A DNA stretch of 64,000 bases from Mantamonas sphyraenae STR306. Taxonomy: Eukaryota; Protista; CRuMs. How positions within the stretch are numbered: the first letter of the stretch is position 1; each line of letters opens with the position of its first letter. Of this stretch, positions 1 to 39,993 are shown piece after piece. The DNA is taken from assembly GCA_026936335.1 (NCBI GenBank), contig JAPMXV010000048.1, forward strand, positions 1 through 64,000, in the 5' to 3' direction. The notes beneath the pieces were generated by a model. It saw only the letters and a list, made by a program, of their open reading frames with translations, had not been told where the DNA came from and did no database searches. A program made the position numbers and the translations under genes.

Positions 1-621
1 CTCTCTACACCAGAAATCAGCATCAAGCACATCATGACATGCATGCCTGGAGTTATATGCAACTCCACGCGTTGCCGTTTCAATGATACACACATGTGGT
101 CGTTTTCAGCGTCCAACGAGGCGACCTGGCGAGCGCGCTTTCTTCCACGCCGCCCAGCGACACCCTTCTCTTTCTTTCCGGACGGTGCGCTAACACGCAA
201 CGGACCACTGCCAGCCTGTTCGTTCCGTTCACATGAAAGGGTCCTCGATTTCAGTATCTGAAGGTCCTGGAGCCGCGCGTGGAGAAGCAGCGAGGTTTCA
301 GCCACACACTCGTAGGCGTTCCTTATTTGCAGTCCAAGCTGTTTCATATCTTTGTGAATTTGCACAATGTCATGCATCAGTCGGCTCATCACGGAAAACA
401 GTTGTCGGCTGAACAGATACGGTTGTATTGTGTGCAACAAAGCAAAAGTTCCAACCGCGGAGACGGTAAGCGGGAATGAATCTGTTTCCATGCTGTAATC
501 TTCACCGTAGTGGGCCGCCCTTTGTCATGTCACGCACCGTTTCTTCTGCACAACTCCCCTCCTTCACTCTCCCACACGCTGCCGCTTCCCTCCCACTCTG
601 CCCTGGTCCTCCCGCTCCCCC

Positions 622-1851
622 TCACACCCCTGTGTGTCTTGTTCCGCCCCCACGTCCCTTTGCACGTCTCTCACAGCCCTCGACGAACTGTGCGACCCAA
701 CCGCACACGCGCTGCAGCACCTCCATCTCACCCACGCGCACCCACCCTGCTCCTCCTCCTCCTGCTCCTCCTCCCACTGCCTCCATGACCAACACCGTCT
801 CGACAGCGTCGTCCACGTCTTCACTCCACAACCAATGCCACGCTGGTCTCCACGCTCTGGCAGTGGCCATTGTCCGCGCCGAATATGCGTCCAGCCACCC
901 CTCTGCGGTCAAATCCGCGTCTGCCCCTAGTCTCCGCAGCATGTTGGCCATCCTGACGTCGCCTCGCTGCACCGCGCGCATCAACGGTGTGGTTCTGTCT
1001 TCAAAGAACGCGTTCACCGACACGTTCAGCTCGCTGACCGCCCAGGCCACCGCCACTGCGTCTCCTCTGTCCACCATTTCCAGCATTGTCTTGACCATCC
1101 ACCTGTTCTCCCTCACTCCGTCCACGTTGCACAGCTCCTGGCTGTGGCCCAGGTACCACACGTCTGTGTTGCCGCCTGACAGCGCCTTGCCCAGCCTGTC
1201 CAGTCCGTCGTCGCCCACGCCGTTGTTGCTCAGGTCCAGCCGCTGCACCGTGTGGTTGTGCACGAGTGCGTCGCCGAGTAGCATGGCGCCAAAGTCGCCC
1301 ATGTTGTTTCCGTCCAGGTTCACTGTGTGCAGCCGTGTGTTTTCCACAAGGACTGCCGCCAGCACAACAACGCCACGGTATCCGATGTCGTTGTCCTCCA
1401 GACCCAGCACCTGCACACCGCGGTTCCCAATCAGCCCTACACCCAGTTTTTCCATACCGCTGTCCCCCAAATCATTGTTGCCCAGATACAGGCATGCCAG
1501 CGTGTTGTTCTTTCCCAACATCCGTCCCAATGCGCGTGCACCGTCCACACCCAGCTCGTTTGCCTCCAGATGCAACACACGCAGGGTGGTGTTGACACAC
1601 AGGGCGCTGGCAATGGATATCACGCCGCCACGTCCCAGTTCGTTCTCGCCGAGCTCCAACGTGTGCAACTGTGTCGAGCGACGCAGCAAGCGAGCGACTG
1701 CGCGTGCGTCGTGTGCAGACAGCAGGTTGCGTGACACGTCCAGGTCGTACGCTTGCTCTCTCCCCTCCACCAGAGCCTCGGCCTGCGCCTCCCAGTCTCC
1801 CTGTTTGCTCATGTCGATGGCTACCATGCGTTTTGTCTGCCGCGCTGTCAT
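622..1851 (-). CDS. RNI-like leucine-rich-repeat protein with C-terminal ankyrin-like repeat (host-like gene)
   Basis: Repeated 28-aa LxxLxLxxNxLGxxGxxxLxxxL units (e.g. NTTLRVLHLEANELGVDGARALG). Ankyrin-like TTPLMRAVQRGDVRMANMLRRLGAD follows. Confidence 0.85.
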   Translation of the reverse strand: MTARQTKRMVAIDMSKQGDWEAQAEALVEGREQAYDLDVSRNLLSAHDARAVARLLRRSTQLHTLELGENELGRGGVISIASALCVNTTLRVLHLEANELGVDGARALGRMLGKNNTLACLYLGNNDLGDSGMEKLGVGLIGNRGVQVLGLEDNDIGYRGVVVLAAVLVENTRLHTVNLDGNNMGDFGAMLLGDALVHNHTVQRLDLSNNGVGDDGLDRLGKALSGGNTDVWYLGHSQELCNVDGVRENRWMVKTMLEMVDRGDAVAVAWAVSELNVSVNAFFEDRTTPLMRAVQRGDVRMANMLRRLGADADLTAEGWLDAYSARTMATARAWRPAWHWLWSEDVDDAVETVLVMEAVGGGAGGGGAGWVRVGEMEVLQRVCGWVAQFVEGCERRAKGRGGGTRHTGV

Positions 1852-2964
1852 CTTGACCGCGGTTCAGTGATGGTGTGGACGAGACTACGCGCACGAAAAG
1901 CCCACCATGGCCGATTGATGCCACCTGTGCGTGTGGGTGCACACGTCTTCGACCCCCCCTCCGTGTCCAGCTTCGAAAAAATGCACAGATTCTCTGGAGC
2001 TGCCGCAACTACACTGACCTCCCCCAGTGTGCTCACCCTCACTGGACACTCTATTACACCCTTTCCAACCCCTACATCCACATGGGAGTCCTGTAACGAC
2101 CTGGATCGACGATGGGAACACTCTTTCCGTTTGTGATGAGCACTATGGCACTGTTTGTACGAAATTGGTGCATTATGTCCAAACCGGGTATTCGCATTGC
2201 CACCGCATCTCCCTCACATCCCACCACACCATCACCCCAGAGCACAATTGCACCGTCGTGTGAGACATCACACGCATCGATGGCACCCCTCGAGACTTCA
2301 TCCACACCACCGTGGACACTCTGAAAATGATAGTCCACCACGCCCACATCCCACAATGAGTGGAGACACCACCCCCTCCCAGGCCCTTCCTCCACCAATG
2401 TACACTGTAAAACTTTGTCCTCCTCCCACATTGAACCCACAGGGAACAACCATCTGGTGTGCAACGATCGAAACAAGCGACTAGCGACACAAGCCACCCC
2501 AATCACCAGATACCTCCTGCTCGTTCACACCTCGAGTACATCCTGTTTCCAGCAAGGTGAGCCATGTACTGCAATAGACGCGACTCCCACGGGCCTACCA
2601 AGCACTTTCCCTTCTCTCCACCATCTTCCTACTTTTTCCGTTCCCACAAAGCAGCCAATCACCCCTCCCTCTTTGCAAACCGTACATGAATCCACACCCT
2701 TATCCTATACAGGAGACTGCGTCTTGCTCACAGCGCAACTCAACCATCTCGCCGAGACATCAATATCACAAATTTTTTCGTCACACTCACCTCAACGACG
2801 CCCGACACATCGATGATGAAACCACCACACAACACACACACACATATACACTTGTTCATTCTACGCGTTTTGTGGTCATTCCCATTTGGTGCACGTCTCG
2901 CGTGCAGGGGCGACGAAATCCGGACGTAGCATCATATACCCGTCCGTGCAGCATGGTCATTCTG

Positions 2965-5900
2965 TGAATGGTGTAGAGCACGTCGTCCATGTGCTTTCTG
3001 TGCCTGCTTCGGCCTCGCAATCGGTAGCTTTGAGCAAGAACGAGCTCGCTGAGAAGGTGGCTGCACTATCAGGCACGCTGTCACGCGGTGAACCCATGTG
3101 CTTGGCGGGGTTCCGCATGCAGACCAGCCCGTTCGAGTTTGGGTGTCTCTGCCTCCTCTGGACTGCATCTCAGCGAGCGTGTCTGCGCCTTTTTCTGTTG
3201 CGCGGGCCTCTCCTCTTGAAGGAGGTCTCAGAGGACACGAGCATCGTATGGGTCGTCTATGCTGCGATCTTGCAGCGGAGAGGGATGTCGCTTTGTCTGT
3301 TGCGGTGGAGATTTTGCTGACGAGGTGTTCTCGAGATCCATTGTGGTCTGTTGTTGCGCGCTGAAGGCAGGACTCGATGTCCATGTGCGAGGTGCAGGTG
3401 TGATGTAGGTGAGATCACCTGCGAGCTGGAGCCACCTGATAATCTCGACCAGGAGGGTCTGCATGTCAGGGGGTAACTGGGTTCTCCGCGTCATTTGTCG
3501 TTGTTGTTTTGGACCAGCCGGCGCAGTGCAGGGATTGCAATCCACGTCTCTATATCCGCAGCATGGAAACTTGACTGTGTGTGGATGGTGTGGTGTGCTG
3601 GCGACCGATGACCAGAGCGAGTGGTGCAGGGTGGTGCGGTGGATCGGAAAATCATCCTACTAGATATCGGCATAGTCATTCCAGGGGTCTGTCGGCATGG
3701 GCGGATGCCTGTTTGTGGCCAGCAGTCCTGTTCTGTTGGATGCGTCGTGTTTGTGGACACGGAGGCGCTCTTGTTGCGCAGAAAAAGCTGGATCATCGAC
3801 GGGAGGAGTTTGTCGGTGACCGTGTCCCAGCGCTCGCGGCAGTCAATCAAATCGTCGTCGTCGTCCGAATAGGAAGGAGGGACCCAAGGGAAGGGGAGAT
3901 CTTTCAGGCGGGAACGGAGGGCACGGTAGTCTGCGGTGCAGCGAGAGTACTCACGATCAAAGAGAACCGAGCCGAGCTCCACCACGTGGCCTCGTACGGA
4001 AACAGCTTGGTTGCGTCGATGGTGTCTTTGCCTTCCAAAACGGACAAGTACTTGACTTCTCTGGGCACGCGAGTTTTGGAACGCGAACGGTTTGCGTTGT
4101 TTGACGCGCGGCTCTTTGTGAGTGCTTTGAGAGTGCTGTGGTCGATGAGGTTTGCAAAAACGTGCGGGAGGTTGATGATCTCCCATTCGTGGAGCACTGT
4201 CCCTTGCACGCGTGTGGAGGGCCAGGAGTCCTTGCGGAGTTGCTGCAGGTGATCCAAGGGTCCATTGGATTCTGTGTTGCCAGCGGAGCCATGGCGGTCT
4301 TCCTCGTCGGACGAGTCCTCACTGACCTGCGGATGGGGGGAAAGATTCTGCAGCCGCCAGTGCAAGAGCCAGGCAAGTTTGAGTGCGAAGCGTGGGTACA
4401 CGTAGTGGTTGCGCACAGTCCAGGCCCTCTTCATACGAGCACGCCATTGTCGTGGTTCCATGATGAGGACAGATTCTTTGGCTGTGTCATAGGTGAGCAG
4501 GGAAAGGCGTTCTGAGCCATCAGGGCGGCGTCGAGATTGGCTGCAACAGGGCAGGTGGCCGGACAGAAGGGTTGTTGGCCATCCACGCAAAGGCGCAGGG
4601 TGCTCGCTGTTGTTCAAAGAGGAGCTTGAAGCGCGACCCGATGGCTTTGGATCCCACAGAAGAAGGCCGGCGTCGCTGTCGAAGCAGTGGATCCAAAGGA
4701 GTGGGGCGACAGATGCTTGTGTGTTCGGTTGCCGTCGATGTCTTGTGCATGTTGCTGCTGAGATAGGCACGTGGCGACATCCAGGCGGTCGCCGCAAAGC
4801 GGTACACGGCATGTGCAGCCAACTTGGCGACTTGCTTCTTCTGAGCGATGTGGTGGACCCATGAAACATGTGATAGCTCGGGCAATCGGCACGCCGTGGT
4901 GGGGGCTGCTCGGTCCGATCGAATCAGGCACTGTACACAATAGTCTGAGGTGACACTGTAGCCGTTCATGGCTTTGACATTGTGTTCCCACGCGTCGTGC
5001 TGTCGTTCGAGCAAGCCAACCAAGGAGTTCCGCCAGGCCTTGCGCAGCACTGTTCGCTCGCAGTCGTTCGTGTTGGCGGCTGCAGCGTCCTGATCTTGCT
5101 GAAAAGCGTGTGCATGAAGTTCATGGGCACGATGTAGCTCAGTTTCCAACAGAATTTGGAGCGGTAGGGGGTAATCGTGGAAGGGTTCGATGGACTCGAG
5201 CTTGTCGAAAACGGGCACGAGGACGTGTTCTTCCACGTCTTTGTACCAAGCGCCAAGTTTGCACAGCGGGACTACACCCACAAATGCCAAGCACGTGAGT
5301 ATGGCCAATTCGTCCTCAGACGCGCTGTCGCTCCTCGCCTGGGAACGAATTTCATCCGCAAACTGGCGAGCCTTTGTCAGGTTCTCCTGGTGCTCAGCAG
5401 TCACCCGCTGGGCAAGCAGAGCCGCCTTGCAGAGGGTCTGTGGATTGGTGGTGGCAATCAGACTCGAGCGCATCGACGGGAACTCGCGAAACCGTGTTGC
5501 GTTGGCACCGTGTTTGGGGTCCATCCAGAAGCAGATTAGTGTCTCCACAATATCGACCCTCTCCTGACTGTTGTTCTCAAGAAACGTTTGACAGTATTTG
5601 TTGATGACACTCTCTGGCTCAGAGGTGAGTTTGCAGCTCGAACCATGAACCCACAGCGGCTCCTTTTTGTTGCCTCCACGCTGGTGTAAAAGCTCTTCAA
5701 TGGACGACATCCAGTTCTCTGCGAGCGCTTCCAGTGTCTCTCTTTCCTGCTCATTCTCTTTGTCCAGCGAGAGCAGCTTGGCCTGAACAAGGGTGGCTGC
5801 CTCCAGCTCCACGCTCATCAAACGTCGCTCGTCAACTTCCAAAGCCGGTGTGCTGTCAATGCGAACATCCGTGAGGTGGAATGCAGGTCGAATGATATTG

Positions 5901-6762
5901 CGATTCATACCTCCATAGTAGGTCCAGGAGTGGCACCCAGTGTGTTCCCAGAGCACTGTGAGCGGGATCAGCCCCGAGAAACTTGCATAGACCACCAAAT
6001 CCCACTGGGCTGAAGACATGTTTGATGTACACACATATGCACTGTTGACAAATTGCCTCAATTTCTCGTAGGAGGTAAGCAGGGGCTCGGGAGGCGGGAG
6101 GTCCAGTGATGCTGAGGCGGCCGCCCACACGAGCGCTTTCACTTGACCAGGGGTTACCTCGCCGCCTTGATACTGTTGAAAAGCGGCAACTAGGTTGCTC
6201 TTGGGGTGCTTAGCATTGGGTCCTAGGTGTGTGAGCTCGTTCTTGTTGATATCTTCGATCAGCTCCAAGGTGATGCTCTCGTATGTGTGCTTGTCAGGCA
6301 GCTGGTGCTTTGAAGGTGAAGCAGGGGCCTGTTGGTCACCATTGGGCTGCAAGTAGTGGCGACGGGCACAGGATGTCCACACATGCGCGCATTCGGTACG
6401 TGTGAGTGCATGACCTGGGCCGGGATGGAGGTTGCAAGAGGGGAAACCCACCGTGCCGTTTGGGTCTCGGAGCTGGAGCTGGAGCTGGAGCTCGAAGATG
6501 CAGATGGGGTAGACTCTACCCGGGACCGCTTAGGTGCGTGGTCAGTTACAGGGTCAATGCTCTGCGGCTCCTCTTCTTGCTCTTGTTCTTGGTCCCCGAG
6601 CCGGATGGGCACTTGCTGCGCAGCCACCTGGACGCCAAATCGGCCACCCCCCTTGCGTCGCTGGTGCTTGGCGGACCTCTTGCGTTTACGTGATGCTGCA
6701 GGTCTATCTCTACGATGTGTGGCTCCCCAAACATTGCCCTCCTGTTGCTCACTGTTCTCCAT
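2965..6762 (-). CDS. Large orphan protein (>1000 aa when frames are joined); NLS-like N-terminus, CxxHx4Hx6C motif, duplicated internal helical domain; 3' end uncertain
   Basis: Fragments 6259-6870, 4520-6451 and 3904-4869 correspond to one 972-aa ORF in the other arm (60631-63549); 3491-4186 and 3228-3545 appear to continue it. Likely start MENSEQQ at 6762. Confidence 0.6.
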
Positions 6763-6904
6763 GGAGCAGAACAAAGGGCGGCTTTGGTGGGTTCTGCGCA
6801 ACTTGCTTGGCCCCTTTGTCCTCTTGCTCAACGTAATCAACGTATCGACGACGGAGCCCACAGCGCCCACGACTTGTGTGGTTCACAAGGAGGTGTACAC
6901 CTTT

Positions 6905-7262
6905 CACCCAATCAAGGTGGTGGGCCTGGTTGGACCTCGCCCGGGACCACTCTCATCGTCGGGTTCGTGTCGTTTCGCTCACCGCTTTCGATATCAGTGA
7001 GTCCTGGACCAAGTCCTGGGAGGACAGTTCCGCACATGTACCAACACACTCTTTGGTCACACACACTGTGGATTGTGATTGGTTTTGCGATGAAGCCTGG
7101 GCCCGGACCAGGTCCGGACCCACTGGTCATCGTAAAATCGGGTGTATTTTGATTTTTTGGCTTTTCATTTCACCTCATCAATTCGTGTGACTGGAGGTTT
7201 CGATGAAGGTCCAGTCCGGACCAAGTCCGGGACCACGAAACAAACCACAAACAGGGACCATA
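6905..7262. promoter_or_regulatory. Cluster of palindromic CGATGA...GGACC/GGTCC...TCATCG boxes between divergent genes
   Basis: 7083-7137 reads TTTTGCGATGA-agcctgggcccggaccaggtccggacccactgg-TCATCGTAAAA (11-bp inverted arms, 1 mismatch). Related boxes at ~6925-6960, ~7000-7022 and ~7198-7240. Confidence 0.6.
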
Positions 7263-7465
7263 CATGGACTACTGGTTGACAGATGGATGTGTCGACCTGT
7301 GTGGGCATGGAGGAAGCTCTGAGGGGCGTGGGAGCATCACTGTGGCCCTGTCGGTCCAACTTGGTCTGCAGCTCGTGGTTGCCCCGTCTGAGGCAACTCA
7401 ACGCGATTGCACTTTGCACGTCACAGTAATCCGCTCGATCACTCACAAGACGCAAACAAGCAATC

Positions 7466-10092
7466 ATGGACATCGATATCCCGGAAATCGACCCTGTCGA
7501 TGAGAGTGTTGGTGACATTGTCCTGGCAGACGAAACGAGCCAGCCCGATGCAGGTTCACAGCCCCACGACGAAGAAGGGCGCAAACGTGCACGTTCAGCA
7601 AGTATTGAGGAGTCGTACCAGGAGGACGAGTGGATTTCGACAGTTGCAGCGGCACTGCCCCAGCCAAAGAAACAGGCTCGCATTGACCTTGGTACGTGCC
7701 CCCCAAACGTCCACACACGGTTCCAAATTACGTGGTTGGTAAAACATAAAACACCTCTACAACAATAACTAACCCCCACGGGCATGGCGCATGGACGAAG
7801 TAGACGCGAGCGCCGTTTCAGACTCGACGCAGCACCTGGATCAGCCTTGCTCGTCATCCGCATCGGCTGGAGATGTTTGCAGAGCAACAGAGAGGCCATT
7901 GAGCAGGGATCAGAGGGAGCTTGTCGATTTGATAGTGGCCGCGACGCGAAAGAAGGACGCGGTGGGGCTTGTGATTGAGGCAGTGCCGGGTGCGGGCAAG
8001 TCGACTGTGATCAGGGTTATTGTGAAGGAAGTCCTCAGAGAAGAGGGTGGAGAGAATCGGTGGACGACCGACCGAGCTCTGTATGTGCTGGTGTTCAACC
8101 GCGCCAACGCGAACGATTTGAAGGAGGCACTCGAGCGAGCTGGAGTCAAGGTGGCGGCAAAGCGGAGTGACGATGGTGTGCACGTGTGCACTTTCCATTC
8201 CAAGGCCATGAGCGATTTGGGCAGTCATGCAAAGGGAGCGGTGACGTTTGATTCGAGCTCTTCGAGCTCGGTTCTTCCGAGATACTTTGTGCAGGTACTG
8301 TGCAGAGCGAGCGCTGACATGCAACAGGGCATGAAGATCGACGATGAGCGCATTGACTCGTACCTATGCGAAAACGTGACCAAGCTTACGAACGAATTTG
8401 TCAAACGAGCCGACGCGTCCAAGGCAAGCACCAACAACCAGGAAATTCGGGACATGTGTCAGAGACACTACCAAAACATTGTAAAGTTTGCCAAGCCTGT
8501 GTTGACACAGTGCTGTCAGCAGTATGCGCCGCTGGTCAGGAGCGTCGAGCAAAAGGTGCTGCGAACGCTGGTTGAGTTCTACAGCCAGGCTTGCATGCAG
8601 ATGAACATTGGCAACGACAAGAGTGAAGTATACCACATGATCAACACGGAACGCAATCTGCGCACTCACTCTGGACTGGAAAAAAAGGCGCTTGGGGCAG
8701 AGTTTGAGCGGGGCGTGCTGACCGAGCTCGTGTGCCTGGTGCTGAAGCCAGCCGAGCTGTTTGCCAACAACATGACAAGCATTGTGTCAATGCCAGATGC
8801 GGTGTACGTGGCAAACATCACAGGCGCAGATTCCTTGCCGCAGAAGCACATGGTGGCCCCTCTGCTCATTGTGGACGAAGCACAGGACTGCACTCCCGCC
8901 ATGATCGAATTTGCCCGCCGCATGACGGAAAAGAAGGGCAGCATACTTGCAGTGTTTGGCGACAAGCGCCAGGCCATCAACCTGTCACTAGGAGCGGCAC
9001 CAACGGCGCTTGCCACTCTGAAAGAGGAAGCCTCGAACCAGGGGATGCGAACGAACACCCTGGAGCTGAAACTCACACGTCGCGTGTTTTCCAAGATGGC
9101 ACCAGTGCTGGAGACGTTGGGCACCCCAATCGAGTTTGACAAGGACGTCGTTGCGCAAGGTACGTTTGGGCCGCGCGAGGAGCTGCCCCGAGCGACCACG
9201 GCAGAAAACGATGACCTATTGATCGTACGCAACAACCAGGAGCAGTGTGTGTTGCTGGCTGTGTACGACCAATTCTTCCTTGCAGACAATCGCGGCCACG
9301 AGTACGCCCAAGTTTGCACTGAGCTCCAGTGTCGGTGGAGCAAACACGGGGGCTCAGAAGAACATACGAATGTGGAAGAGTGGCGATCTACCGCGCAGGG
9401 GTTCGTCGAACGCGAGTTGCAGGTGATGCTCGACCCGAAGAAGTTGCCGACACGGAGGGCGTTGGCCGCACAGCCGTGGTCGGTCGCTTCGACACTCGCC
9501 AGGACGTCCAGCAGTTCTTCAGGAGCATCAGAGGTGCGAACCGCAGGGTGTCGATGATGTTGCGAACTGTGGCTCTTGTGCGAGGGTGGCGGTACTTGCA
9601 GCGGGATGATCTCGTTCATGAGCAGGGGGTACACGAACTCCAGCAGCGCTTCAACGACTTTATGCACGCTCCAGCAGACGCCATGGATGGCAACGGACTC
9701 TTCAAGATCCAGATCTCGACGGTACACAAAGCTAAGGGGCCGATCGCGGGAATGTGCACATCCTCGGACTCGTTGACCTGTTTGCCAGCACGCAAGGTAA
9801 CGCGGACGAGTCGTTGAACCTCGTTTACGTTGCTTTGACTCGCTGCAAGCGTGGGTTGTTTCTCTACCCGTTGCTGGATGTCGACGAAACTGACGATGAA
9901 GACAAGCTCTGCGAGACGCTGAGCAAACAGACCAACGTGAGAATGTTGAAGGCCCTGGATTTACTCATGCAAGGATCCAAGGCGGTTGAAAACGAAGGCT
10001 ATATTGGGCCCACCACAAAGACGTTTGTGGCTGCACTCCGCAAGGCCATCTCTCACAGAGAAAAACAAAGCGCGGAGATGATTGTCGAATGA
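7466..10092 (+). CDS. UvrD/FBH1-like superfamily 1 DNA helicase; two exons (7466-7691, then from 7801 or 7804); two 1-bp frameshifts near 9432 and 9739
   Basis: Motifs AVPGAGKST (I), LVFNRANA (Ia), CTFHS, LIVDEAQD (II), FGDKRQAI (III), STVHKAKG (V), LVYVALTRCK (VI). Intron with GTACGT donor at 7692, ACTAAC branch point and phase-1-compatible AG at 7800 or 7803. Confidence 0.88.
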
Positions 10093-10192
10093 ACGTGCCT
10101 CTGCTCTAGTGTATTGTAGACGATGCCAAACACCGCATTGTGGCTCCATGGCTTCAGACACTGTGAGCCAGCCCATGAGCGTTCGACCAACT

Positions 10193-10549
10193 GGTTTTCA
10201 CGATGAAGCTCAGGTCCGGACCCCGGGTCATCGTCAGGAACCACCCAAGGTCGTGTGGCGAAAAAAAAAAGTTGTATATATATACCATCCTATGAATTTT
10301 TTTTTTTTTGGAGAGGTGGGGTGGTCTTGCCTCGGCTGGGTGAGAAGTGTGGTTTTCACGATGAAGCTCAGGTCCGGACCCCGGGTCATCGTCAGGAACC
10401 ACCCAAGGTCGTGTGGCGAAAAAAAAAAGTTGTATATATATACCATCCTATGTTTTTTTTTTTTGAGAGGTGGGGTCGGCTGGGTGAGAAGTGTGGTTTT
10501 CACGATGAAGCTCGAGTCCGGACCCCGGGTCATCGTCAGGAACCACCCA
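10193..10549. repeat. Tandem repeat (units start 10193, 10351, 10495) of a palindromic box plus A10/TATATA/T12 tract; candidate replication origin
   Basis: Unit: GGTTTTC-ACGATGA-agctca-GGTCCGGACC-ccggg-TCATCGT-caggaaccacccaaggtcgtgtggcg-A10-gtt-GTATATATATAC-catcctatg-(aa)T12. Confidence 0.9.
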
Positions 10550-10710
10550 TCGGTGAAGATGTCCAAGGTCATGTGAACAAAAACTGTCTGTATCGTATTG
10601 TTGTGGTGTTGTATTGTACTTTGGTAACGTTAAACCAATTGGTAGTCTCGCGAGCAGATGTGCCTCGCAATGCTCCAGCTGTGCCAAGATAACGTTGTGT
10701 AGTTCGCCAA

Positions 10711-11319
10711 ATGACCCATCAGTCAATTAAAGGTGATTCTGAAAACAAGTGCTCTGGTTCGATGCCGAGTGGTGCAATCGGTTCGTTGAACACACCAACG
10801 ATGAACGATGGCGATGATGACCACAACATTGTTGTCGATGACAACGATGCAGACTACCGCAGCGGGTACGAACTGGAAGAAGGAATAGATGATGAGGCCG
10901 AGGAAGATAGGGGTGAAACCATCAGTGGAGTAGGGGGGTACGGGTTCCGTTTTATTGATGACGAATTTGAGGAGGAGGAGATTATGGACTCGGAGGAGGA
11001 GGAGGAGATGAGGCAGTTTATTGCGGATGACGACGAGTTTTTGGAGTGCATTGAGCTTACAAGCAGTGACGAGGAGGACGAGAACCGTTGGACGAGTGAG
11101 GAAGATGAGGACGATCAGTGGTACTACAACGAGGGGTCTGATGAGGAGGACAACTACGGCTATGCCAACTGGAGTGACTTGGATGTGGATGTTGACGATT
11201 TAAACAGCTCATGCTACTCCGGAAGCGATGTGGACGACTCTGGAGATGACGATGACGAGATAATTCTCCCCCGCCGGCGCAACCGACGTTCCATCCCAGA
11301 CGATGAAGCAGAAGCATAA
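10711..11319 (+). CDS. Small highly acidic (D/E-rich) protein with basic C-terminal patch; true start may be 10801
   Basis: Acidic ORF containing FIDDEFEEEE and FIADDDE, ending PRRRNRRSIPDDEAEA. Identical in both arms. Confidence 0.75.
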   Translation: MTHQSIKGDSENKCSGSMPSGAIGSLNTPTMNDGDDDHNIVVDDNDADYRSGYELEEGIDDEAEEDRGETISGVGGYGFRFIDDEFEEEEIMDSEEEEEMRQFIADDDEFLECIELTSSDEEDENRWTSEEDEDDQWYYNEGSDEEDNYGYANWSDLDVDVDDLNSSCYSGSDVDDSGDDDDEIILPRRRNRRSIPDDEAEA

Positions 11320-11442
11320 AAAGAAGGTGGGCTTTATAATTTCCTTGTTCTTGACACAGTGATGCTAAACAGTACGGGCACCAGCTCGCAAAAGTCAGCC
11401 TAGCTGGCGTATGTGTGTGTGTGATGAGTTGGTACCTCCTGG

Positions 11443-11490
11443 TTGATGAAGCAGCGTGCAGGACCAGGTCCGGACACCAGCGGCATCGGT
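11443..11490. promoter_or_regulatory. Degenerate copy of the palindromic box upstream of the UL9-like gene (mirror at ~56010-56058)
   Basis: TTGATGAAGC-agcgtgca-GGACCAGGTCCGGAC-accagcgg-CATCG. Confidence 0.5.
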
Positions 11491-11573
11491 TGGAGCACTC
11501 GATAGGCGAGTATGTTTTCCTGTTCGTGATGCGCCGTCACCCCCAACCAATCAAGATTTCGCTCAGTGGGGAT

Positions 11574-14500
11574 ATGCAGGGGTCTGACAGCCGGTCTGAA
11601 GCCAAGAATGAGGCTACAGTCGATGGCATGGAGCTGGAAACTGACACTGGACTGCCGTCGGCCGAGAGCACCCTCGCTGTGCACAACCATCCGGCCACAC
11701 AAGTGGAGCCTGTGAGGGGTAGCAACGAGCCTGTGAGGGGTAGCAACGAGGCTGTGAATGAGATTGTAGTCGATGTAGACAACACTACAGTCAAAGTTGG
11801 GATTGGGGAAGACGCTGAAGAGCCGTCGAGCACAGCGCAAAGAAAAGGCAAGGGTAAACTCGGCACGGGCTTTGGTATGTTCGAACGCAGGTACAGGAAA
11901 AGAGGTGGCCCCGTGTACGTACAAATCGGCGAAGAGACGGCGCGCATGGGTATTGGCAACATGGAGTACCCCGGGTACTGTGAGAAAATGCTGCGATGGT
12001 ACCAGGAGCATGCAGCGGAGAACGTCGTGCCTCTGGCTGAGGCCACGTATGCCCAAGACATGGATCACAAACTGGTAGTTCACTTCCGGTATGATGGCGA
12101 TGAAGAGAACGACGGCGTTTACGTGACGCATACCAAGAAAGTGGTGCTCGAGTTTCTCCAAAAGCTGGTCGGCGAATACGAGGACGAGGACATCGAGTTC
12201 ATGAGCGTTATGTACACCATCATGGTCCGTCGCTCTGCTGACAAAGACGATCCATCTGTGTGCGTCCAGCTGGTTGTGGATTTGCGTGTGGATCGGGACA
12301 CCGCAGAGCGCACGCTGGGGATCCTGAAGGAAATTGAGAAGAAGCTAGGTGGCGTCATGGTGTGCTCTGAAATGCTTCTTCCCGAACGACACTCACCTTC
12401 CATGTGTGGCTTGAACAGCGACCACCCTGTGACTGTCCTTCAGAGATTCAAGGGGACAGTGCAGCAAAAGGCTTGGAACAAGTCGGTGCGGAAATTGGTG
12501 ATGAGCGAGGATTACAGCAAGCTACTGACAGCGTACAGTTCCACCAGTGCTCTGTGGCCGTACACCATGCAAGCTGAACAAACGTGTCCTCCTGTGCTGG
12601 CAAACTGGCTGCTGCACAGGCTCGACACGTCCGACGAGCAGAGCACAATGTCCCTGGACAAGTACGTGTCCACGTTTCTCACCCAGCATGCTCAACACGA
12701 AGGTTTGCGCTATTTGGGGAGGATCTTGGAGGAGACTGCGCGTCTGATACCAACTCGCCTTCCGAGCGACTCTTGCAACACTCAGACAGCCACAGACACG
12801 ATGAACACAGACGAAAGCGGAGCTTTTGACAAGACCTGGGAGGAAGCAGATGTACAGGTGCGCCGCTCGGCGTTTGGCAACGGTGCGGTGCGGCTAATCA
12901 TCACCGACCAAGAGGAGCGGACACAAATCCGCGTCACCTCTCTCTCGTTTGCCAAAGGTGTACGTGTATGTACGGAAAGACGAAAACTGGGCTGTGTGTG
13001 GAGGGAATCCTCGGCACAAGGTGTCCCAGGTACCAAAGTCGCCCGATCTGTGCAACTTGGACCTGGACACGCTGCTTGTGCTCATGAGCGCCATCCTGTA
13101 CAACATACAATCACAGCCCGCCCGAACGATGGCGTCGGACTTGGAGAAAGAAAGGGCTGAGAAGGATTGGCTGGATGGTCTCAAGGAGAAGATCCATCAG
13201 CAGGATGTGTTTGTCCATGCCGGTCGCGCAGACGACAAGGAGGTGTGGGCCAAAATCTCGCAAGACATGGATCATCTGCGCCGTGACTACGAAGGGCAGG
13301 ACGATATCGAGATTGAGGATGCAGAAGGCAATTTGCCGATGCTTGTTTATTTTGTGTGCGCACCAACGGCTCTGGGTAAGTCGCTTCTCCTCGCCCGTCT
13401 GCACTCCGATTACCTTATGCATGCCACAGATGGAGACGACAAAGAATCGGCCTTTTTGCAGTCCTCGCTGAGCATCATCTACCGGACTGCCTTGCTGCCA
13501 AGCCTGATGGACAACCTCCCGGGCGTCGTCTCGTACGATGACATCCGCAACGGCAAGCGCAGAAAGGAAGATGTGCAACACGTCGTCTCAACAATGGAGA
13601 GCATGCTGCGCCATGTGTACCACGAAAACATGGAGCCTGAGTTTGTCAATCTCGACGAGATCGCGCGGCTACCGAGCAAGCTCCTGGAACAAACGTTGGC
13701 ACACAACGCACCGGTTAATGCGACCCTCGGCTGTATTTTGCGCACATTCATCACAGCCAAGATGCTGTACTTTGCCTCGGCGGAGTTGACGCCGGAGACG
13801 GTGTCGTTTGGGGTTTCCACCATCCGCAGGCTGGTTCCCAACCGCAATCTGCGTTTCCGTGTCATCGTAGTCGGACGAGAAAAAGCCACGTGGCATGGAC
13901 GTGGTCATCCACCGCTCACAGGAGACGTTTCTGCAGCGCATGATCGCCGAATGGCAGCACCGTCCACAGGCTGACCTGGAGTTTCTCCGCGACTACCGCA
14001 TCTTCTCTGCAGTGGATGACCTTGAACGCTGCTGCGAGCTCTACACCGAAAACCAAGCCGCTGTGACAGACCGCAAACCCACCGTGTACTTGGTAAAGGG
14101 CAAGGGAGTGGACAAAACGGAACAGGACCGGAGCGTCCGCAACCTGAACGCCATGAGCAAGAGTACATTCAAGCGGATTCCGCTGACCGATTTTCACAAG
14201 GCACAAAGCGAGAGAAAGCAAGGGCTTTTCCGCAATATGGCCAGGAGCCAATCGGCAAAAGGTTGCGCAGATCACGACGCGACGTTTGTGACGAGCAAAA
14301 TCGTTGAAGGAGTGAGCGTCGAGCCCACGGCGTTCGATTCATTCTCTTTTCTGCGGAAACCCGACTTAACATCACCCATGATGGTTGTGCAGATGGTAAA
14401 CCGTGTGCGAAACGTCCCGAACGATGTGAACGAGGCGTTCTTGCGCTCGCAGATGAACTTGGTCTCCGTCGGACGGCACAAAGATTACGTCGCGAATCTG

Positions 14501-15080
14501 GAGCTTCTTTTCAAGCACAAAAAGGACTTTGACCAGTACGCCAAGCGTCAGCATGCCAAGGATAGGTTGAGCAACAAGAGACTGTTTGGAAGTCCCCATA
14601 ACGCCCAGCGGGACATGCACATGGGATCCTCAGACCCGTGCGATGTAGCATTCATGGTAGAGTTGCTGGCGAAATGGAGCGCAGCAGAAAGCTCTTCGTT
14701 TGATGCTCAGCAACTTGAGCGAGGCCTAGCGCACAACGGGCAGAACGTGTACTATTTCGACGCCCCAATCCCCCTGAGGGACACAGATGTTGATGGTCAT
14801 GCTCGCATCGTCCTGGAACCATACGAAAGCAACGTCCATGTCTGGACTGTGGACGGTGAAGTCACCCTACCCCAGCTACCAGTGTACGACGTCAACGTGC
14901 CGTACGGGCCGTCAAACTCGCAGGACGAGTTGAACGCCACAGATCGACCTTCCAAGCGTGATCGAAGCGATGAAGACGCCCGAGGGGTGAGTTTGATGAC
15001 AACGAGAACCCCGTCGCAAAACACCAGCGGGTTGAGAAGGATCAGGGGGAGCCAGACAGCAGTGAGGAGTTCAATGACCT

Positions 15081-15116
<36 letters not shown>

Positions 15117-16449
15117 CAGTAGCAGTAGCAGCTCGGGACACAAGCTCGACACAACATCAGATCTGTGGCGCTTGTACGTATCCACCGTCAAGCTTCGGTG
15201 CCAACGATATACACCGCCCACTTCAAAAGCGGAAAACAATGTACGGTGGTACGAGAAAAGGCGCCGCGGGGTCCAGCGGTTGGAGAAGGTCAACGAGAAG
15301 CTCCTGCGCCAGGTCGCGCAAAAGGTGGAGGAGTATCGTACCAACGACAAGTCAGAGGAGAAGTACAAGGAAGAATTGCAAAAGAACATGAAAACAGCCG
15401 AAGAAGGGGATGATGAGTACAGCGGACCGCAACCGGACATGGTGGACTTGTACTGCGGGATGTCACCTGCAGAACAACTGGGTATCTGGGAAGCGATCCC
15501 CTACCGTGAGTTCGTGGCTTTGTTGGACTCTCCCAAGGAGCACTTATCATCCAGTGGCTGGTATTCAATCCAAGACAACCGTTGCAAACGCCTTCAGAAC
15601 CTTGCCCTTCTGACATGCTCACAGAAAACGCTTCAATCTGCAGAGAAACTGAGCAGGAGAACTGTCAGGGAGACCTCGAAGCACACAAATGCGCTCACGT
15701 CGCGCACAAACACGTCACCACCGCACTATAGCGACGACAAGGAAGTTCTGGACCGCATTCTGGGTTTTCTGGGAATACCAACAACCGACGAGCTCCGGCA
15801 ACTGGAGAAGGCGCCGGAAGACATTGTGTTATGTGCGTACAACACACCGAACACGAACGACGACGATCACGACGACGACGACGACGACGACGACGACTCG
15901 ACGGACAGGCAAGTGGTCTCGGCAGAAACCCTGGCCGAGATCCGTGACGTTGTCAACACACATGTTGACTCGGCCTCAGATGGCTGCTTGCTGGCCACCA
16001 AGAAGGTGGACAAAGAATTCACACTGTCTGCTGTGAAAACACTTCTATCGAAAGCTGGTGTGCCCATCATGAAGAGATCGAAGAAAGATGGTGACGGTGC
16101 ACAGCCAAAATACGCCACGTACATACTGGCAGGTAAGCAACTGTTCGGCTGGGCCCAAGCGGCCAAGAATCTGCGGCGCCACTGGAAATGCACGCAGCAG
16201 GACAATAGTCAGTATTCCTCTGGCCGGGGAGAGGCGAGCGCCCAAGGTCAATGTCCGTGTAGCTTCCACGAGCTGGACCTTGCCAAGAAGTTTCGCCGCG
16301 GTGCGCACAGGTCAAACGATATCTACCTGGAAAATCCAACCGCCGACGATGAAACACAAGTGTGGAGTGAGAAGCAGCAGGCACAACTGGATAGGCAGCA
16401 GCACATGAGTTCGAGCAACTTGACAGGCTTTGAAATGATAGAGACATGA
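11574..16449 (+). CDS. UL9-like origin-binding SF2 helicase protein (left copy; frameshifts near 12940, 13880 and 14985)
   Basis: Four ORF fragments (581, 341, 498, 425 aa) that correspond to the single 1678-aa ORF in the right arm. Confidence 0.75.
11706..11758 (+). repeat. 21-bp coding tandem repeat (EPVRGSN x2 plus partial)
   Basis: gagcctgtgaggggtagcaac repeated twice, then gaggctgtga. Confidence 0.85.
15081..15132 (+). repeat. (AGC/AGT)n microsatellite encoding poly-Ser in the UL9-like protein (mirror ~52368-52420)
   Basis: cagcagcagc...agtagcagtagc. Confidence 0.9.
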
Positions 16450-16593
16450 GCCCAGCGCCTTGATTGGAGCGCTCGACGAACCCGCACCGTAGTCAAGGAG
16501 CAGCAGCAACCACAATAACAAAACATAAAGAATCTTTCGCAACCGCTTGCTTTTTGTTGGATACCGTCAGGTGTGCAGTCGCTGTCCCACATC

Positions 16594-17961
16594 TCACTGC
16601 AGCAAATGAAGGAGACAGAGCCAAGTGAGGAGGAGCAGGATCAAATGAACATGGTTGTGAGTTGCGTCGCTGGAAGTGGGTGCTGCCGTTGGAGTTGGGG
16701 TTGGGGTCGAGCTGTCCGGTGTGGGCGACGACGGCTCACTCTTGCCAACCACCGAGAGCGAGCAGTACCGGGTCGACGTGCTCGCATCCATGGTAAAGCC
16801 AAACACCACGATGGAGTCACCTGCAAGTGTCATGCCAGACACGTAGTGGTCTGGAGCCCAGGTTTTCCACCACTGGAACGAGCCGGTCGCGTCGTACCGC
16901 AGCACGGCCGAGATGGGCGTGGTTGTCGTGCCCTGCAGATACCAGGTTGCGTAGTACACTCCCGTGGAATCTACATCGACCATTGCAGGTCGGGGGAACT
17001 GGTTGTCGATCGACGCATTGGTACGATGCCAGTTCAGTGTTCCAGCAAAATCTGTTTGGTACAGCGTGGCGCGCCACCCAGAGTTCTCGGCCTTGTAGGC
17101 GACAGTGTACAGCTTGCTAGACGCACTGTCTACAGCGATGCTCTGGGCGTCGTAGTCTACCATCGTTGCCCCTCCTGTGGGCGAAGACGAAGGGTAGGCC
17201 ACGCTCTGGAGCACACCTGCAGACGACACTCGTGCCACAAACATCCGCGTCGCAAATCCAGACGGTTTCGGGTACCCTGGTATGTTGGTGGATGCACCGC
17301 CCGCTGCAAAGATGTCTCCAGAGCTCGCATCGACGCCCACCTCGCGCACTTGGTCTTTGCTGTCGCCACTTCCAAACACCGTGGTCCACTTTACCGTGCC
17401 GTTCGACGCACGCCGTTGCACATACATCGTTACCGTGTTGGCTGTTGTGTTGGCGATGTGTCCAACCAGAACCAGGTCTGACGCTCCCCACGAAGCCATG
17501 CGCAGCCCACTCTGGCTCATGTCCGAATCCGCCATCTTCCACACCACCGTGCCGTTGGGCATGACGCGACTGAGTTCTGTCTGCCCGCTCGTCAGGGATG
17601 GGTTGGTGGAGATGCGACCAAGCACAAACACAGAGCCGTCCTGCAGCACCACGTCTGACCCGAATGACCGGAAGCGAACGCTCCACTCCGTCGTGCCGTT
17701 CAGGGCCATCTTGGCCAGGAAGCCGCGCGCAACTCCTGGTCCCGAGTATGAAAGCTGGTTGGCAAGCGTGGTGTATGCTGTGTCTACAACATACAGCGCC
17801 TGCGCACTGGCGTCCCAACGCACGCCCGAGCGTGTCACCGGAGACGAAGCAAGCCCAGAAAAGTGGTCGTTGCACCCGGGAAAGGTGTACGTCTGTACAG
17901 CCAGTGTGGGTGTCGCACACAGAAGCGTAATGGTCAAGATGAGAAGGAAGAAACGCGGCAT
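16594..17961 (-). CDS. Secreted beta-propeller (SBBP-like) surface protein with P/T/S stalk and hydrophobic C-terminus (GPI-like)
   Basis: Signal peptide MPRFFLLILTITLLCATPTLA. Repeats such as NGTVKWTTVFGSGDSKDQVREVGVDASSGDIFAAG. PTPTPT stalk and LILLLLTWLCLLHLLQ tail. Confidence 0.8.
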   Translation of the reverse strand: MPRFFLLILTITLLCATPTLAVQTYTFPGCNDHFSGLASSPVTRSGVRWDASAQALYVVDTAYTTLANQLSYSGPGVARGFLAKMALNGTTEWSVRFRSFGSDVVLQDGSVFVLGRISTNPSLTSGQTELSRVMPNGTVVWKMADSDMSQSGLRMASWGASDLVLVGHIANTTANTVTMYVQRRASNGTVKWTTVFGSGDSKDQVREVGVDASSGDIFAAGGASTNIPGYPKPSGFATRMFVARVSSAGVLQSVAYPSSSPTGGATMVDYDAQSIAVDSASSKLYTVAYKAENSGWRATLYQTDFAGTLNWHRTNASIDNQFPRPAMVDVDSTGVYYATWYLQGTTTTPISAVLRYDATGSFQWWKTWAPDHYVSGMTLAGDSIVVFGFTMDASTSTRYCSLSVVGKSEPSSPTPDSSTPTPTPTAAPTSSDATHNHVHLILLLLTWLCLLHLLQ

Positions 17962-19246
17962 CGCGGACGGGGTGGTTTTTTCGTGCTTGAAATTGCTGCG
18001 AGTTGCGCACGAGTCGTTCACGTCGCTTTCTACCCCTCTGACAGGGTGGCAATCGCCTCTTTGTTCCGTCCGTAGGTGCATGCTCTGCATGGTTGTGTTG
18101 GACATCCGTCTGTGGCCCTGTGTCCGGCTTGTCACGCAGTCGCAGGAGAAGCGGCTTGGTGTCAGGGCTTGCGCGGGTTTTGCCCTCCCAGGTCGCGTTG
18201 GAAGCCTGTTGCGCGGCGTTTCTGACCCGAAGATCGGTTAGAGGTTGGATCGAACACCTACAAGCAGCTTTCAGGTGTCACAGGTGTCTCTGATGGCCTA
18301 CGGTGGAGCTTGGCAAGGTAGGGTCAATCTCCGACCAGTGCGATCTGGATGTGCAGGGTGCATCAGGCAAGATCCGCTGTGGCCGACTCCTTGGCTGCTC
18401 TTCCATGCCTGGTGTGAACTCTATTGGAGCGCACAGTTGTTAGCATTGGGAGCAGAGTTGGAGTCGACCGATCGATTCACGGTAGACGTGGTCCAATCGA
18501 GCCATGCGCAGTCCGGGTCGCGTTTGCTCATCTCAGGTTTCTCGTTTCGCCACCACCTCAGCTGTGCGGTCTACTTCAAGAAATGGTATGGACAGCATTG
18601 GCTCCACAGGCGCCGGAGGTTGGTGCGTGAGGACCAACTTCGCCCAGTCGGCTCTTCTGGTGCAGGAGGCTCACCCATCCAAAGAACGATCCTTGGGATC
18701 TCCCAAACCCATGGGTTGCTTCATACAGACGGTGGTATGGACCGTGACCATTTGAGGGACAGGCTCGGTGGGCACGTTTGATTGCCGTTGTGCAAAAGGG
18801 AATCTGACCAGGCTGGGATGGTGTGAGGATGTCGCTTTGCTCTGCCCACCGAAAACCGTGCAATGCAGAAGCTACAACTGTCGTTGCACCCACAGCAAAG
18901 TGAGATCCATCTGGAGAGGGTATCCAAAGCAAGGGCACAGCCGACACACGATGACGAATCACTTGCCGAAACAACCCCTCCAAGGAGCCCAGACAGCACT
19001 TTGAGAGTCGCAGACAACGGCTGCACTGTGCTCACAATCATTCTATCACTCCAGTCACTCCTGGTGTTACTCCAGGTCACACATTCTGCGCACAGCTTGG
19101 AGGTGGATATTGTACGATATTGCGCGATTTTGTACAAACCCATCCTTCTTGGGATACTCTCGTTTTCTCGTTTTGCGTATACCGACTGGATATCTCAGAG
19201 GACGAGGGATCAAAGTGGACAGGGTAAGCAACGATTTTACGTGTCT

Positions 19247-20669
19247 TTACCACGTGCCTTGCATGTGGGCAAGCGCCGCAGAGGCCATCAGCATGACGAG
19301 CAGCGCACCGGCCGTTGGGCCACTCGCATTCTGGGACGAAGCGCTCGCACTGGGAGAGGTTGTGGCTGTGGGCGTCGGGGTCGGTGTGGCAGATGCACCA
19401 GGAGTCGGAGATGCGGACGGACTGGGACTGGGCGCATACTCAGTCGTAAACATGTCGCTTTTGCCAGCGCTCTGGAATCCAACTGCAATGAACTGATCCA
19501 CCTTGCCTGTCACCATCAGCGCCCCGTCGGACAGGAATCGAGTGTTGTAAGGAGTCGGTGTAGTGTCCCATCGGGATGCCAAGATCACGGTCCCGTTGGG
19601 ATCCATCTCGATCAGCGCGCGTTTGAAGGGAAGGTTGTTGTCTGGGATGGTTCCTGCATAGTACAGCTTGCCATGGTGGGCAACCAGGTTAGTGTCTGCT
19701 TGGATGACCCCGTTCACTTGAGTGGATGACACAAACGTGCCATTCGTGTGGTGGCGCATCAACAAGGGTTTGGACACGGGACTGCCCTGGTTGCCAATCG
19801 TGTACAACAGACCATCCGAGAGAAGCACCATGCCTCTGGGAAGTACAGGTGTCGTGTAGTTGCTCTGCCACACCCACTCGCGGTTGCCTTGCGGGTCAAG
19901 CTTCATCAGAAAGCCGTGGTTGGCGTTGCTGTACGTTCTGTTCTGGTTCGTGATGTCTCCGCTGGTGCGTCCGCCTACGTAGATTGCGTTGTTGATGATC
20001 TCCATCGTCCACACGCTCTCACTCTGGCTGTTGCCCATGTAGGGGGTGCTGTAGAACTGCCTGGACCACAGGATCTCCCCGTTCTGGTCCAGTTTTCACC
20101 ACCAACACGTCTTGCAGGTTAGGATTGCCACTTGTCATGTTCATGAACGAACCAAACACGCTGCCAGCAACGTAGATGTTGCCCGAGGCGTCCATCGCTG
20201 CGACGTCTGCGTAGTCCGTTGCTTCGACTCCGAACTGCTTGTTCCACAGAATGGTGCCCGTCGGAGAGAGCTTGCTCACCACCAAGTCTCGATCGCCTTT
20301 TAGCGTGAAGCCAGGCAAGGAGCCTCGTGTTTGGCCAAACACATACAGGTTGTCTTGCGAATCTACCACTGCACTGACGAGCTCATCTTCTCTGTCAGTG
20401 CCCCACTGCCTGCTCCACACACGTGTCCCGTTACGGAACATGCGTGTCACGTAAAAGTCGGCGTCGCCAGCATTTGTGTAGCCATCCAGGCTGCTTTTGG
20501 TCCAGCCCGAGATGAACACGCTTCCGTCGCTTGCTTCGTTCACACAACGAGCGTAGTCGTCCTCAGGTCCGCCCCATTGAGCGTTTGTCACTGTCTGACG
20601 GGATGGTCCAGCAAGTAGGATGAGAGTCGCTGCCAGAGACACGATAGAGAGTAGAGATGCCTTGGTCAT
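19247..20669 (-). CDS. SBBP-repeat beta-propeller surface protein 2 (left copy, 1-bp frameshift near 20093)
   Basis: Split ORFs 20019-20744 and 19247-20038 equal the intact 46830-48251. Confidence 0.8.
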
Positions 20670-27508: not shown

Positions 27509-28340
27509 GGGGGTGCTATTTGTGTGACATCATCAAGGAAAGAGCACAAACCAGGACGACTGTTTACACACCGCCTTGCTCTTGTCGTGTACCCAGGTGC
27601 CGCTCTTGGCTGCAGTATGCAGTGCACATGTGCTTGCACCACACCCGCCCCATTCTGGGTCGCTGCCAACACCCACCATCCAGCAGTATTACCCATATGC
27701 TCAAAACTGTCCATTCTCAGCACCATCGCACTCCGTCGCACCGCCACCGCTTCTTCGACTAGCCTTTGCGCACAACGTTATCCTGCTTGTAATTTGGCCT
27801 TCGTCACGCGCGACTACGACGACCACCTCACCACCACCACGATGGACACGTGCTGGAGCAGCAACTCTCCCAGTGACGAGCGTGGCAGCTGCACGGCGCG
27901 GGAGTTCCAGACGCTGCTGGCACTCATCAAAGCACGCACCCTGGCCGTCACCATGCACACGAACACCAAGCAATGCGTGAGCTGATCAACAACAGTGACC
28001 TGATGTCCCTGCTGGGGAAGACACGAAAGAGCAGAGGCAGTCATACACAACACATTGGCAGCGGCAGATGCAACACACGACCACGGAAGAGCACAAGCAG
28101 GCATGAACAAAAGCATGGGTGGTGGGGGTGGCAAGGAGCGCATTGGCCCTGGCATCACCCTGTGGTTTGCATTGTGCAATGAACGGGATTTTCGATGCTT
28201 GACGAGTCCATGGTTGCGGGTGGCAACTAGCCACACACACACGGGTGCCCAGTAAACAACCCAACGCCTTCGCCTGACACTAGGGAAGCATGTTGTCGCA
28301 TCCCGTTTTGAAAAGACGACACACTCTACACTCTTCACCT

Positions 28341-37762: not shown

Positions 37763-38168
37763 GTGTGTGCTCTCCCTTGCAAAGGCCCATCACAGAGCAA
37801 GAGCGGGTGAAAGTGCTGGTGCAGAAATTGGCTGGAACTCACTTGCGCAAGCTCTGCAGGCACATCGTTCCAGCGCTGGAAGGATGCAAAGCGATCGTTG
37901 GGAGTGCTATGGTGTCTGCTGAACCATGATTTCTGGAACGACATGCAGATTGGAGTGAATTAGTTGGAGCGGCCCGGGGGGGTTCTGGAAGACACTGAGC
38001 CAACAATCAGCACGGCCACTGCATTTGAGGACTTGCGTGTGTTGGATATCCATTTCATGGATGCTGTTACCCGCTGAGTGCCTGTGCCCCTTCAGTGTTC
38101 ATCGCACCGGCACCTGGTTCTCGACGGTTGCTTTTCTACCTCAAAGCACGCATGTGTTGACAATCAGG

Positions 38169-39821: not shown

Positions 39822-39993
39822 CGACTCGACCCGGAAGACACCTTCAATGAACAATCCGAGACATACCAAAAGTGTACAGCCAACACCTCAGGTGCACAGC
39901 GACGGTAGTCCAGACCCATGGCACAACCACATCCTCCAGGCGCTGGACGACGATGCATAAGAATAGACAGGCATGTCTGCAAAATCATATTCC

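Follow-up and report, generated by a model that had tools for sequence, protein, structure and literature searches.

In the herpesviruses, it is established how UL9-type helicases recognize origins, as set out in the available text of three papers (PMC12543377, PMC13458718, PMC13483431). Primase-helicases that combine an AEP domain with a UL9-like SF2 helicase are described for mimivirus (R8), ASFV (pF1055L), OsHV-1, some mriyaviruses and SmDNAV in the accessible parts of two further reports (10.1101/2024.02.29.582850, 10.64898/2026.08.29.747986), and those parts name no origin sequence for proteins of the R8/F1055L type. CyRepA1, according to the portion available of PMC10899382, supports autonomous plasmid replication.

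Here we analyzed a stretch of 64,000 nucleotides (the window), for which a preliminary description had proposed a replication origin made of three palindrome copies and A/T-rich tracts between two helicase genes. On a modest balance of probability, the tandem array at this place combines initiator boxes with an unwinding element and serves as an oriS-like origin for a nuclear replicon that is amplified and probably extrachromosomal. No intron-bearing, amplified inverted-repeat protist DNA with a UL9-type initiator was found in the openly accessible literature, bioRxiv supplements apart.

Table 1. Features of the window bearing on the candidate origin.
Feature	Positions	Strand	Remarks
Tandem array, candidate origin	10192-10549	+	158-bp unit x 2.4; three box modules, two A/T tracts
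Module 1 of array	10201-10233	+	left box CGATGA(AG), 6 nt, core GGTCCGGACC, 5 nt, right box (GG)TCATCG
Modules 2 and 3 of array	10359-10391 and 10503-10535	+	
A/T tract 1, candidate unwinding element	10261-10309		A10, (TA)5 palindrome, T13 (10297-10309)
A/T tract 2	10419-10464		A10, (TA)5 palindrome, T12 (10453-10464)
Mirror copy of array, right arm	56951-57307	-	two differences from left copy, both at T runs
Two degenerate partial modules	6915-7025	+	read by eye; missed by the pattern scans
Diverged module, two cores	7083-7137	+	geometry 6-6-10-1-10-6-6
T-rich tract between 7088 and 7201 modules	7133-7182		GC 0.30; second, degenerate box/AT/box
Diverged module	7195-7240	+	left box and two cores, no right box
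Diverged module	11444-11488	+	geometry as at 7088; 5' of likely start of UL9-like gene (11574 or 11628, inferred)
UvrD/Rep-like SF1 helicase gene	7466-10093	+	intron 7692-7803; Pfam UvrD-helicase, E 6e-15; joint in X4
Very acidic 202-codon ORF	10711-11319	+	no known family; between array and UL9-like gene
1675-codon ORF, UL9-like	51049-56076	-	possible AEP primase-like domain, ~aa 215-400; UL9/OBP-type SF2 helicase, ~aa 640-1000; C-terminal part unassigned
Left-arm copy of 1675-codon ORF	11424-16449	+	split by indels missing from short-read contigs
Left arm	3516-27504	+	99.8% identical to 39997-64000; continues beyond window end
Spacer, unique, 12.5 kb	27505-39996		host-like, intron-bearing genes (NPC1 N-terminal domain, 2316-codon ORF)
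Right arm	39997-64000	-	large inverted repeat

Results

The tandem array and its A/T tracts

Tandem Repeats Finder reported the array with a period of 158, 2.4 copies and a score of 576, and the start-to-start distances of its units are 158 and 144. The word ACGATGA occurs at 10200, 10358 and 10502, TCATCGT at 10228, 10386 and 10530, and the core GGTCCGGACC at 10213 and 10371. When 10192-10549 was re-read, the three modules and the A/T tracts that separate them were exactly as first described, including the altered core of the third module, which is AGTCCGGACC instead of GGTCCGGACC. After the box module, each unit continues with A10, GTATATATATAC and 12-13 consecutive T. The modules had been called nested palindromes; this is true of the outer boxes and the central core, which pair, but not of the 5-6 nt spacers, where just 1-2 of 5 positions form Watson-Crick pairs. 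Because units 1 and 2 share 98% identity across 115 nt, the triplication is recent. The three copies were also not the whole set: because the window is a large inverted repeat, the array has a twin in the right arm, which was missed together with the diverged modules at 7088, 7201 and 11444. Array-type runs and (TA)5 tracts occur elsewhere in the window in this mirror copy alone. A 164-codon ORF across the left array (10082-10576) was rejected as a gene because it is not kept in the right arm. The word GTGAGAAG at 10339-10346 and 10483-10490 agrees in 7 of 8 letters with HSV Box 3 (PMC12543377, in the text available), probably by chance.

The A/T tracts of the array are the lowest-GC 50-mers in the window, with GC contents of 0.16 and 0.18 against a window mean of 0.56. 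Duplex stability was ranked over 1-39996, the non-redundant ~40 kb of the window, and the two least stable 50-bp duplexes were the same tracts (z 5.8 and 5.4). Next in A/T content within the arm comes a 50-mer between the modules at 7088 and 7201, with a GC content of 0.30. No switch in GC skew was seen at the array.

The neighboring helicase genes

The proposed location between two helicase genes is correct on the side of the UvrD-like gene, but on the other side the acidic ORF comes before the UL9-like gene and, because it intervenes, the array lies ~1 kb away from that gene. The left copy of the UvrD-like gene has frame breaks, and its right-arm ORF (57407-59710, -) is open. The left-arm frame breaks are absent from the short-read contigs, among the 12 of 60 indels listed, and the right-arm ORFs are open.

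Sequence comparisons support the identification of the 1675-aa protein as a remote UL9/OBP-type SF2 helicase, and the description of this neighbor as UL9-like was borne out by our own profile, by CyRepA1 and by Atlas. The profile, built from 19 diverse phage-OBP/CyRepA1 cores, gave 33.2 bits, compared with 9.0 for the best of 500 shuffles, and SF2 motifs I-III and V-VI were collinear in it. Residues 620-1120 matched the NCBIfam CyRepA1 plasmid Rep with E 1.8e-6, at 27 bits against a cut-off of 200. In the top Atlas cluster for the helicase (score 0.98), 53% of members carry PF02399, a family also carried by 3 of 120 CyRepA1 relatives. A close CyRepA1 profile of 120 sequences missed the protein, though it found T5 OBP; pairwise BLAST to T5 OBP was not significant, and searches of Pfam (PF02399 Herpes_ori_bp, E 1), PHROGs and PDB sequences gave no match. 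A pattern search of the protein found no motif like the C-terminal RVKNL of herpes UL9, the Walker B sequence is DEIA versus DEVM/DEIM in UL9, and no DNA-binding domain was identified in the 1675 residues. Residues 165-600 are nearest to viral AEP clusters (Atlas 0.86-0.88); by eye, DxD is present and the second and third catalytic motifs look changed. An N-terminal AEP primase-like domain is possible and serves as a lead only. Single-sequence AlphaFold models were unusable (pLDDT 35 and 38), and a fold search with the second returned nothing.

Relatives were absent among 7991 scored candidates for the helicase region, among 1.84 billion representatives for aa 170-1190 of the 1675-aa protein and among 7996 candidates at E 1e-5 for the UvrD-like protein, as well as in viral or metagenome contigs, phages or plasmids (tblastn) and PDB sequences.

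Box modules in the replication-gene cluster

Exact GTCCGGAC words occur six times in 1-39996 (7112, 7214, 10214, 10372, 10516 and 11468), and every one of these cores is closely preceded, on its own strand, by a YGATGAAG box; no such pair arose in 4 Mb of sequence simulated with a third-order Markov model. The cores represent three loci (four sites with tandem copies collapsed), all within 7088-11488, and allowing one mismatch per word added a single weak site at 22563. The modules at 7088 and 11444 have a common geometry (Table 1), 12 bp longer than that of the array modules, or about one helical turn. The spacers of the diverged modules differ and pair poorly (0-3 of 5-6 pairs). Because the spacing of boxes and cores is kept while the spacers lose pairing, the modules have the look of a sequence read by a protein rather than of a selected hairpin. 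The asymmetry of the module is also kept, since AG always follows the left box and GG or CG precedes the right box where present in full modules.

All module copies lie within 4.5 kb, inside the replication-gene cluster, in one orientation and each 5' of a cluster gene: the modules at 7088 and 7201 precede the spliced start of the UvrD-like gene (7466), those at 10201-10535 precede 10711 and that at 11444 precedes 11574. This arrangement, in which every module precedes a plus-strand gene, is also what would be expected if the modules were operators or enhancers and A10-(TA)5-T13 a TATA box in nucleosome-free poly(dA:dT), so that the array would play no part as an origin and be a locally triplicated promoter serving the helicase gene and the acidic ORF. 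The homologous regions (hrs) of baculoviruses, which are both origin and enhancer in the available part of PMC4535591, favor such a function and at the same time indicate that promoter and origin roles can coexist. However, none of the other promoters in 40 kb comes near to having so extreme an A/T tract, the module at 11444 has no such tract, and a helicase of the origin-binding type would be left without a target; we regard a purely regulatory array as rather unlikely, though it is the foremost alternative to an origin.

A 936-codon ORF at 60739-63549 (+; mirror ~3950-6760), which gave no match, is divergent from the UvrD gene across the module cluster at 6915-7240. Its product is an alternative candidate for the module binder.

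The large inverted repeat and its probable nuclear setting

Depth was taken from short-read contigs of four runs of one study, which may be the source of the assembly. Arm contigs had depths of 264-281 in run X1 and 189-194 in run X2, and spacer contigs 115-146 and 93-107 (seven listed contigs in each), a ratio of 2:1. A contig loose end at 40001 matches the opposite junction. Because of the 2:1 depth and the contigs that cover both junctions, the inverted repeat is real, and misassembly was rejected as its source. Positions 1-3515 are at arm-level depth (264 in X1) and their contig extends another 2158 nt to the left, which makes an arm length of at least 29 kb likely. Of the contigs touched by short matches alone, seven of nine in X1 had depths of 46-56 and the remaining two 25 and 34, and six of seven in X2 had depths of 37-41 and the remaining one 20; three joints to such contigs are also present in X4. 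If these contigs represent host chromosomes, the molecule would stand at ~2.5 times the chromosomal level, with the reservation that contig depth is no copy number. The molecule is probably extrachromosomal and may be a free circular or linear replicon at raised copy number; its ends lie beyond the window.

All nine joints checked have GT..AG ends, in run X4 alone (labelled DNA by guess), and four of them belong to arm genes, as spliced introns. From these joints and from the LRR, SET and NPC1 domains, we infer that the genes of arms and spacer are nuclear genes of a eukaryote, in all likelihood a protist. The contig depth of X4 over the array bin was low (10.7), although contig depth says nothing of RNA level.

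Several further genes were recorded. The spacer contains an ORF of 2316 codons (28280-35230, -), which has cysteine-rich repeats and an internal direct repeat of 957 nt (97%), belongs to no clear family and shows by far the greatest depth in run X4, and a stand-alone NPC1 N-terminal domain gene with an intron (38169-38771, -; Pfam E 2.5e-23). The arms encode a SET-domain protein (43236-44849, +; mirror 22652-24265; Pfam E 7e-9), which could alter the chromatin of the molecule or of the host, and two predicted secreted beta-propeller proteins with SBBP-type repeats, Pro/Thr/Ser stalks and hydrophobic ends (46776-48251 and 49393-50904, +). An LRR/ankyrin gene lies at 622-1851. The ends of the inverted repeat, 27504 and 39997, fall within the last codons of a 704-codon ORF of no known family with two upstream introns, and the sequence at both borders resembles a splice donor (GG-GTGAG at the left one, AG-GTAAG at the right one). 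Possible explanations are that the gene runs on into the spacer in a different way from each arm, or that the border is a site of action of its product. At 35891-36006, a variant contig with seven listed substitutions and several indels relative to the spacer had about one sixth of the local depth (25 of 153 in X1, 20 of 119 in X2) and is possibly the diverged chromosomal parent of the spacer.

Pfam, PHROGs and NCBIfam scans of the window detected no capsid, packaging ATPase, polymerase or other viral core gene such as would point to a DNA virus or endogenous virus (Nucleocytoviricota, mirusvirus, Polinton-like); these scans covered the window only, several of its ORFs gave no match, and the molecule extends past it. 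No rRNA gene is present in the window. The same scans found no recombinase or partition family, which argues against the modules being sites of recombination, resolution or partition, that is, direct-repeat imperfect palindromes serving as cassette borders, or a plasmid stability locus. Copies in the same orientation do bracket single genes (UvrD, acidic), and the presence of such an array on a multi-copy molecule with an inverted repeat resembles the STB/FRT layout of the yeast 2-micron plasmid. However, none of the four joints listed for 1-20000 skips a module-bounded gene, and the module copies are too diverged for simple crossover. Such a function is improbable.

Dispersal of the array

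In X1, nine contigs fell on 1-20000, of which only one listed lies inside the array, at depth 605.8. Array depth (605.8 in X1, 380 in X2) compares with 569-605 and 378-388, respectively, expected from the window's own 31-mer copies, and the short-read contigs gave no sign of additional near-identical copies (at least 90% identity). This comparison sees copies of ~90% identity or more and skips low-complexity parts. In this range, contig depth and count thus give the array no near-identical extra copies, as a dispersed host MITE or satellite would have. A loose module pattern matched at least 120 viral stretches, once each; none of the 120 matched the full two-box module or was among the tblastn matches to four window proteins, and the strict pattern gave no match in metagenomes and one isolated viral match that looks like chance. 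It is very doubtful that the array is a host minisatellite, a tiny transposon or a neutral local triplication unconnected with the genes: the near-identity of units 1 and 2 would suit a recent neutral event, but depth, which registers copies of ~90% identity or more, is accounted for by the window copies, and the diverged modules keep their box spacing and stay in the replication cluster.

Folding of the modules

Single-strand DNA folds of the array modules reached z scores of only -0.4 to -1.75, and the strongest ssDNA hairpin of the family is that of the copy at 7080 (module 7083-7137; z -4.0). RNA folds of all six modules were not clearly better than those of shuffled sequences (z +0.2 to -1.6), no compensatory pairing was found among the module copies, and no part of the window matched Rfam at the gathering score. 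A hammerhead reading of minus-strand CTGACGA and GAAA words was dropped, as the stems misfit by eye and Rfam gave no match. That the array encodes small RNAs, whether as Pol III units with the T runs as their ends or as hairpin precursors, is barely credible, since the TATA-like tract, the T runs and the ability of each module to form a hairpin are set against the Rfam and folding results, which, as far as they go, also speak against the small-RNA array that the preliminary description named as a refutation.

Discussion

Several lines of evidence lead us to favor the array as an oriS-like origin. The two 50-bp stretches with the lowest duplex stability in 40 kb are each flanked by inverted boxes, which is the layout of HSV oriS; the neighboring gene encodes what appears from its sequence to be an origin-binding-type helicase; and the six cores all have their box and are confined to 7088-11488. 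In addition, the array is present twice, once in each arm of an inverted repeat around a unique segment, like oriS, the depth of the arms is raised, and that of the array is as expected from the window copies. The interpretation as binding sites with an unwinding element, made in the preliminary description, is thus partly supported and consistent with layout, duplex instability and position in the inverted repeat, but an operator or promoter role explains part of the evidence equally, because every gene of the replication cluster has the same module on its 5' side.

If the array is an origin, initiator dimers would occupy the GTCCGGAC cores and the inverted CGATGA boxes that flank a tract. 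The predicted binder is the UL9-like helicase, encoded ~1 kb from the array. Once bound, it would destabilize the A/T tract, which would open, and the SF2 domain, followed by the UvrD-like helicase, would extend the unwinding. Priming could be performed by the N-terminal AEP-like domain if it is active, or otherwise by the host, and the polymerase would come from the host, none having been found in the window. The triplication would provide two tracts, each between a pair of boxes. Single modules before the replication genes may be extra sites through which the initiator regulates its own cluster, and the pair at 7088-7240 may be a second, weaker origin. Plasmid iterons likewise regulate their own gene cluster. 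As a possible variant, the initiator might tether the two arms for recombination-linked replication, because UL9 was poor at looping oriS in single-molecule experiments and was found to tether DNA in trans (available text of PMC13458718).

Some observations count against an origin. The box-to-box spacings across the two tracts differ by 14 bp, which is not a whole helical turn, and box phasing matters in oriS (PMC13458718, in the text available). Moreover, CGATGA and GTCCGGAC do not match the HSV box GTTCGCAC (table of PMC12543377, as available).

A wider proposal, which we hold tentatively and think less probable than not, is that the whole molecule is a capsid-less, self-replicating nuclear plasmid or minichromosome with the IR-unique-IR layout of herpesviruses, its own UL9-type initiator, an SF1 helicase and iteron-like origins, which has gained spliceosomal introns and whose central part holds captured host genes that it amplifies. 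Within 6 kb, a candidate for the initiator is found together with a simple box motif, of which natural variants exist, and a candidate tract for unwinding; because of this, and because the organism is deeply sequenced, initiator binding and initiation are directly testable. If it is a free multi-copy replicon, the molecule would represent a nuclear plasmid of a kind unusual in eukaryotes, on which an episomal vector for its host could possibly be based.

Comparison with known systems

Long inverted repeats around a unique centre are known in multi-copy nuclear DNA from the rDNA palindromes of Dictyostelium, Physarum and Tetrahymena, the yeast 2-micron plasmid and the inverted amplicons of Leishmania. 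In contrast to the extrachromosomal rDNA palindromes, the molecule described here has no rRNA gene in the window and brings its own viral-type initiator. As a probable episome, it would resemble the mirusvirus episomes, which persist in the nuclei of protists according to the accessible text of PMC10827195.

Compared with CyRepA1 (PMC10899382, available part) and the T5-like phage origin-binding proteins, the 1675-aa protein has the same helicase core. However, the similarity is remote, and CyRepA1 is prokaryotic and controlled by upstream sense and antisense RNAs. With its possible AEP domain, the protein likely has the domain order of the R8/F1055L-type primase-helicases, and SmDNAV likewise pairs a primase-helicase with an SF1 helicase and has no polymerase of its own, according to the available portions of 10.1101/2024.02.29.582850 and 10.64898/2026.08.29.747986. 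Unlike the giant- and protist-virus molecules that carry such proteins, the window has no detected capsid, packaging ATPase or viral core gene, and its genes have spliceosomal introns, whereas none were found in ariadnaviruses in the same portions of these reports.

The closest resemblance in layout is to HSV-1 oriS and oriL with UL9 (PMC12543377, PMC13458718, PMC13483431, in the text available). In both cases, inverted boxes flank a (TA)n-rich spacer, two copies lie in inverted repeats around a unique segment, and an SF2 helicase of the same clade is encoded on the molecule. In oriS an adjoining inverted box forms a stable single-strand hairpin (oriS*); the array modules can fold as well, with z scores of only -0.4 to -1.75. 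The array differs from oriS in its box sequence, in its additional GTCCGGAC core, in its tandem triplication and in tract length, which is 46-49 bp as compared with 18. The 1675-aa protein is twice as long as UL9, lacks RVKNL, differs in Walker B and belongs to a protist-like host, and no herpes genes were found in the window. The baculovirus hrs (PMC4535591, available part) are similar in being clusters of repeats with imperfect palindromes, present at several places and acting as origin and enhancer, but share no sequence or protein with the array, whose copies are confined to a 4.5-kb cluster. Although it is a member of neither group, since box, recognition motif and host differ, the array together with the UL9-like gene may function in the manner of herpes oriS/UL9 or of a baculovirus hr.
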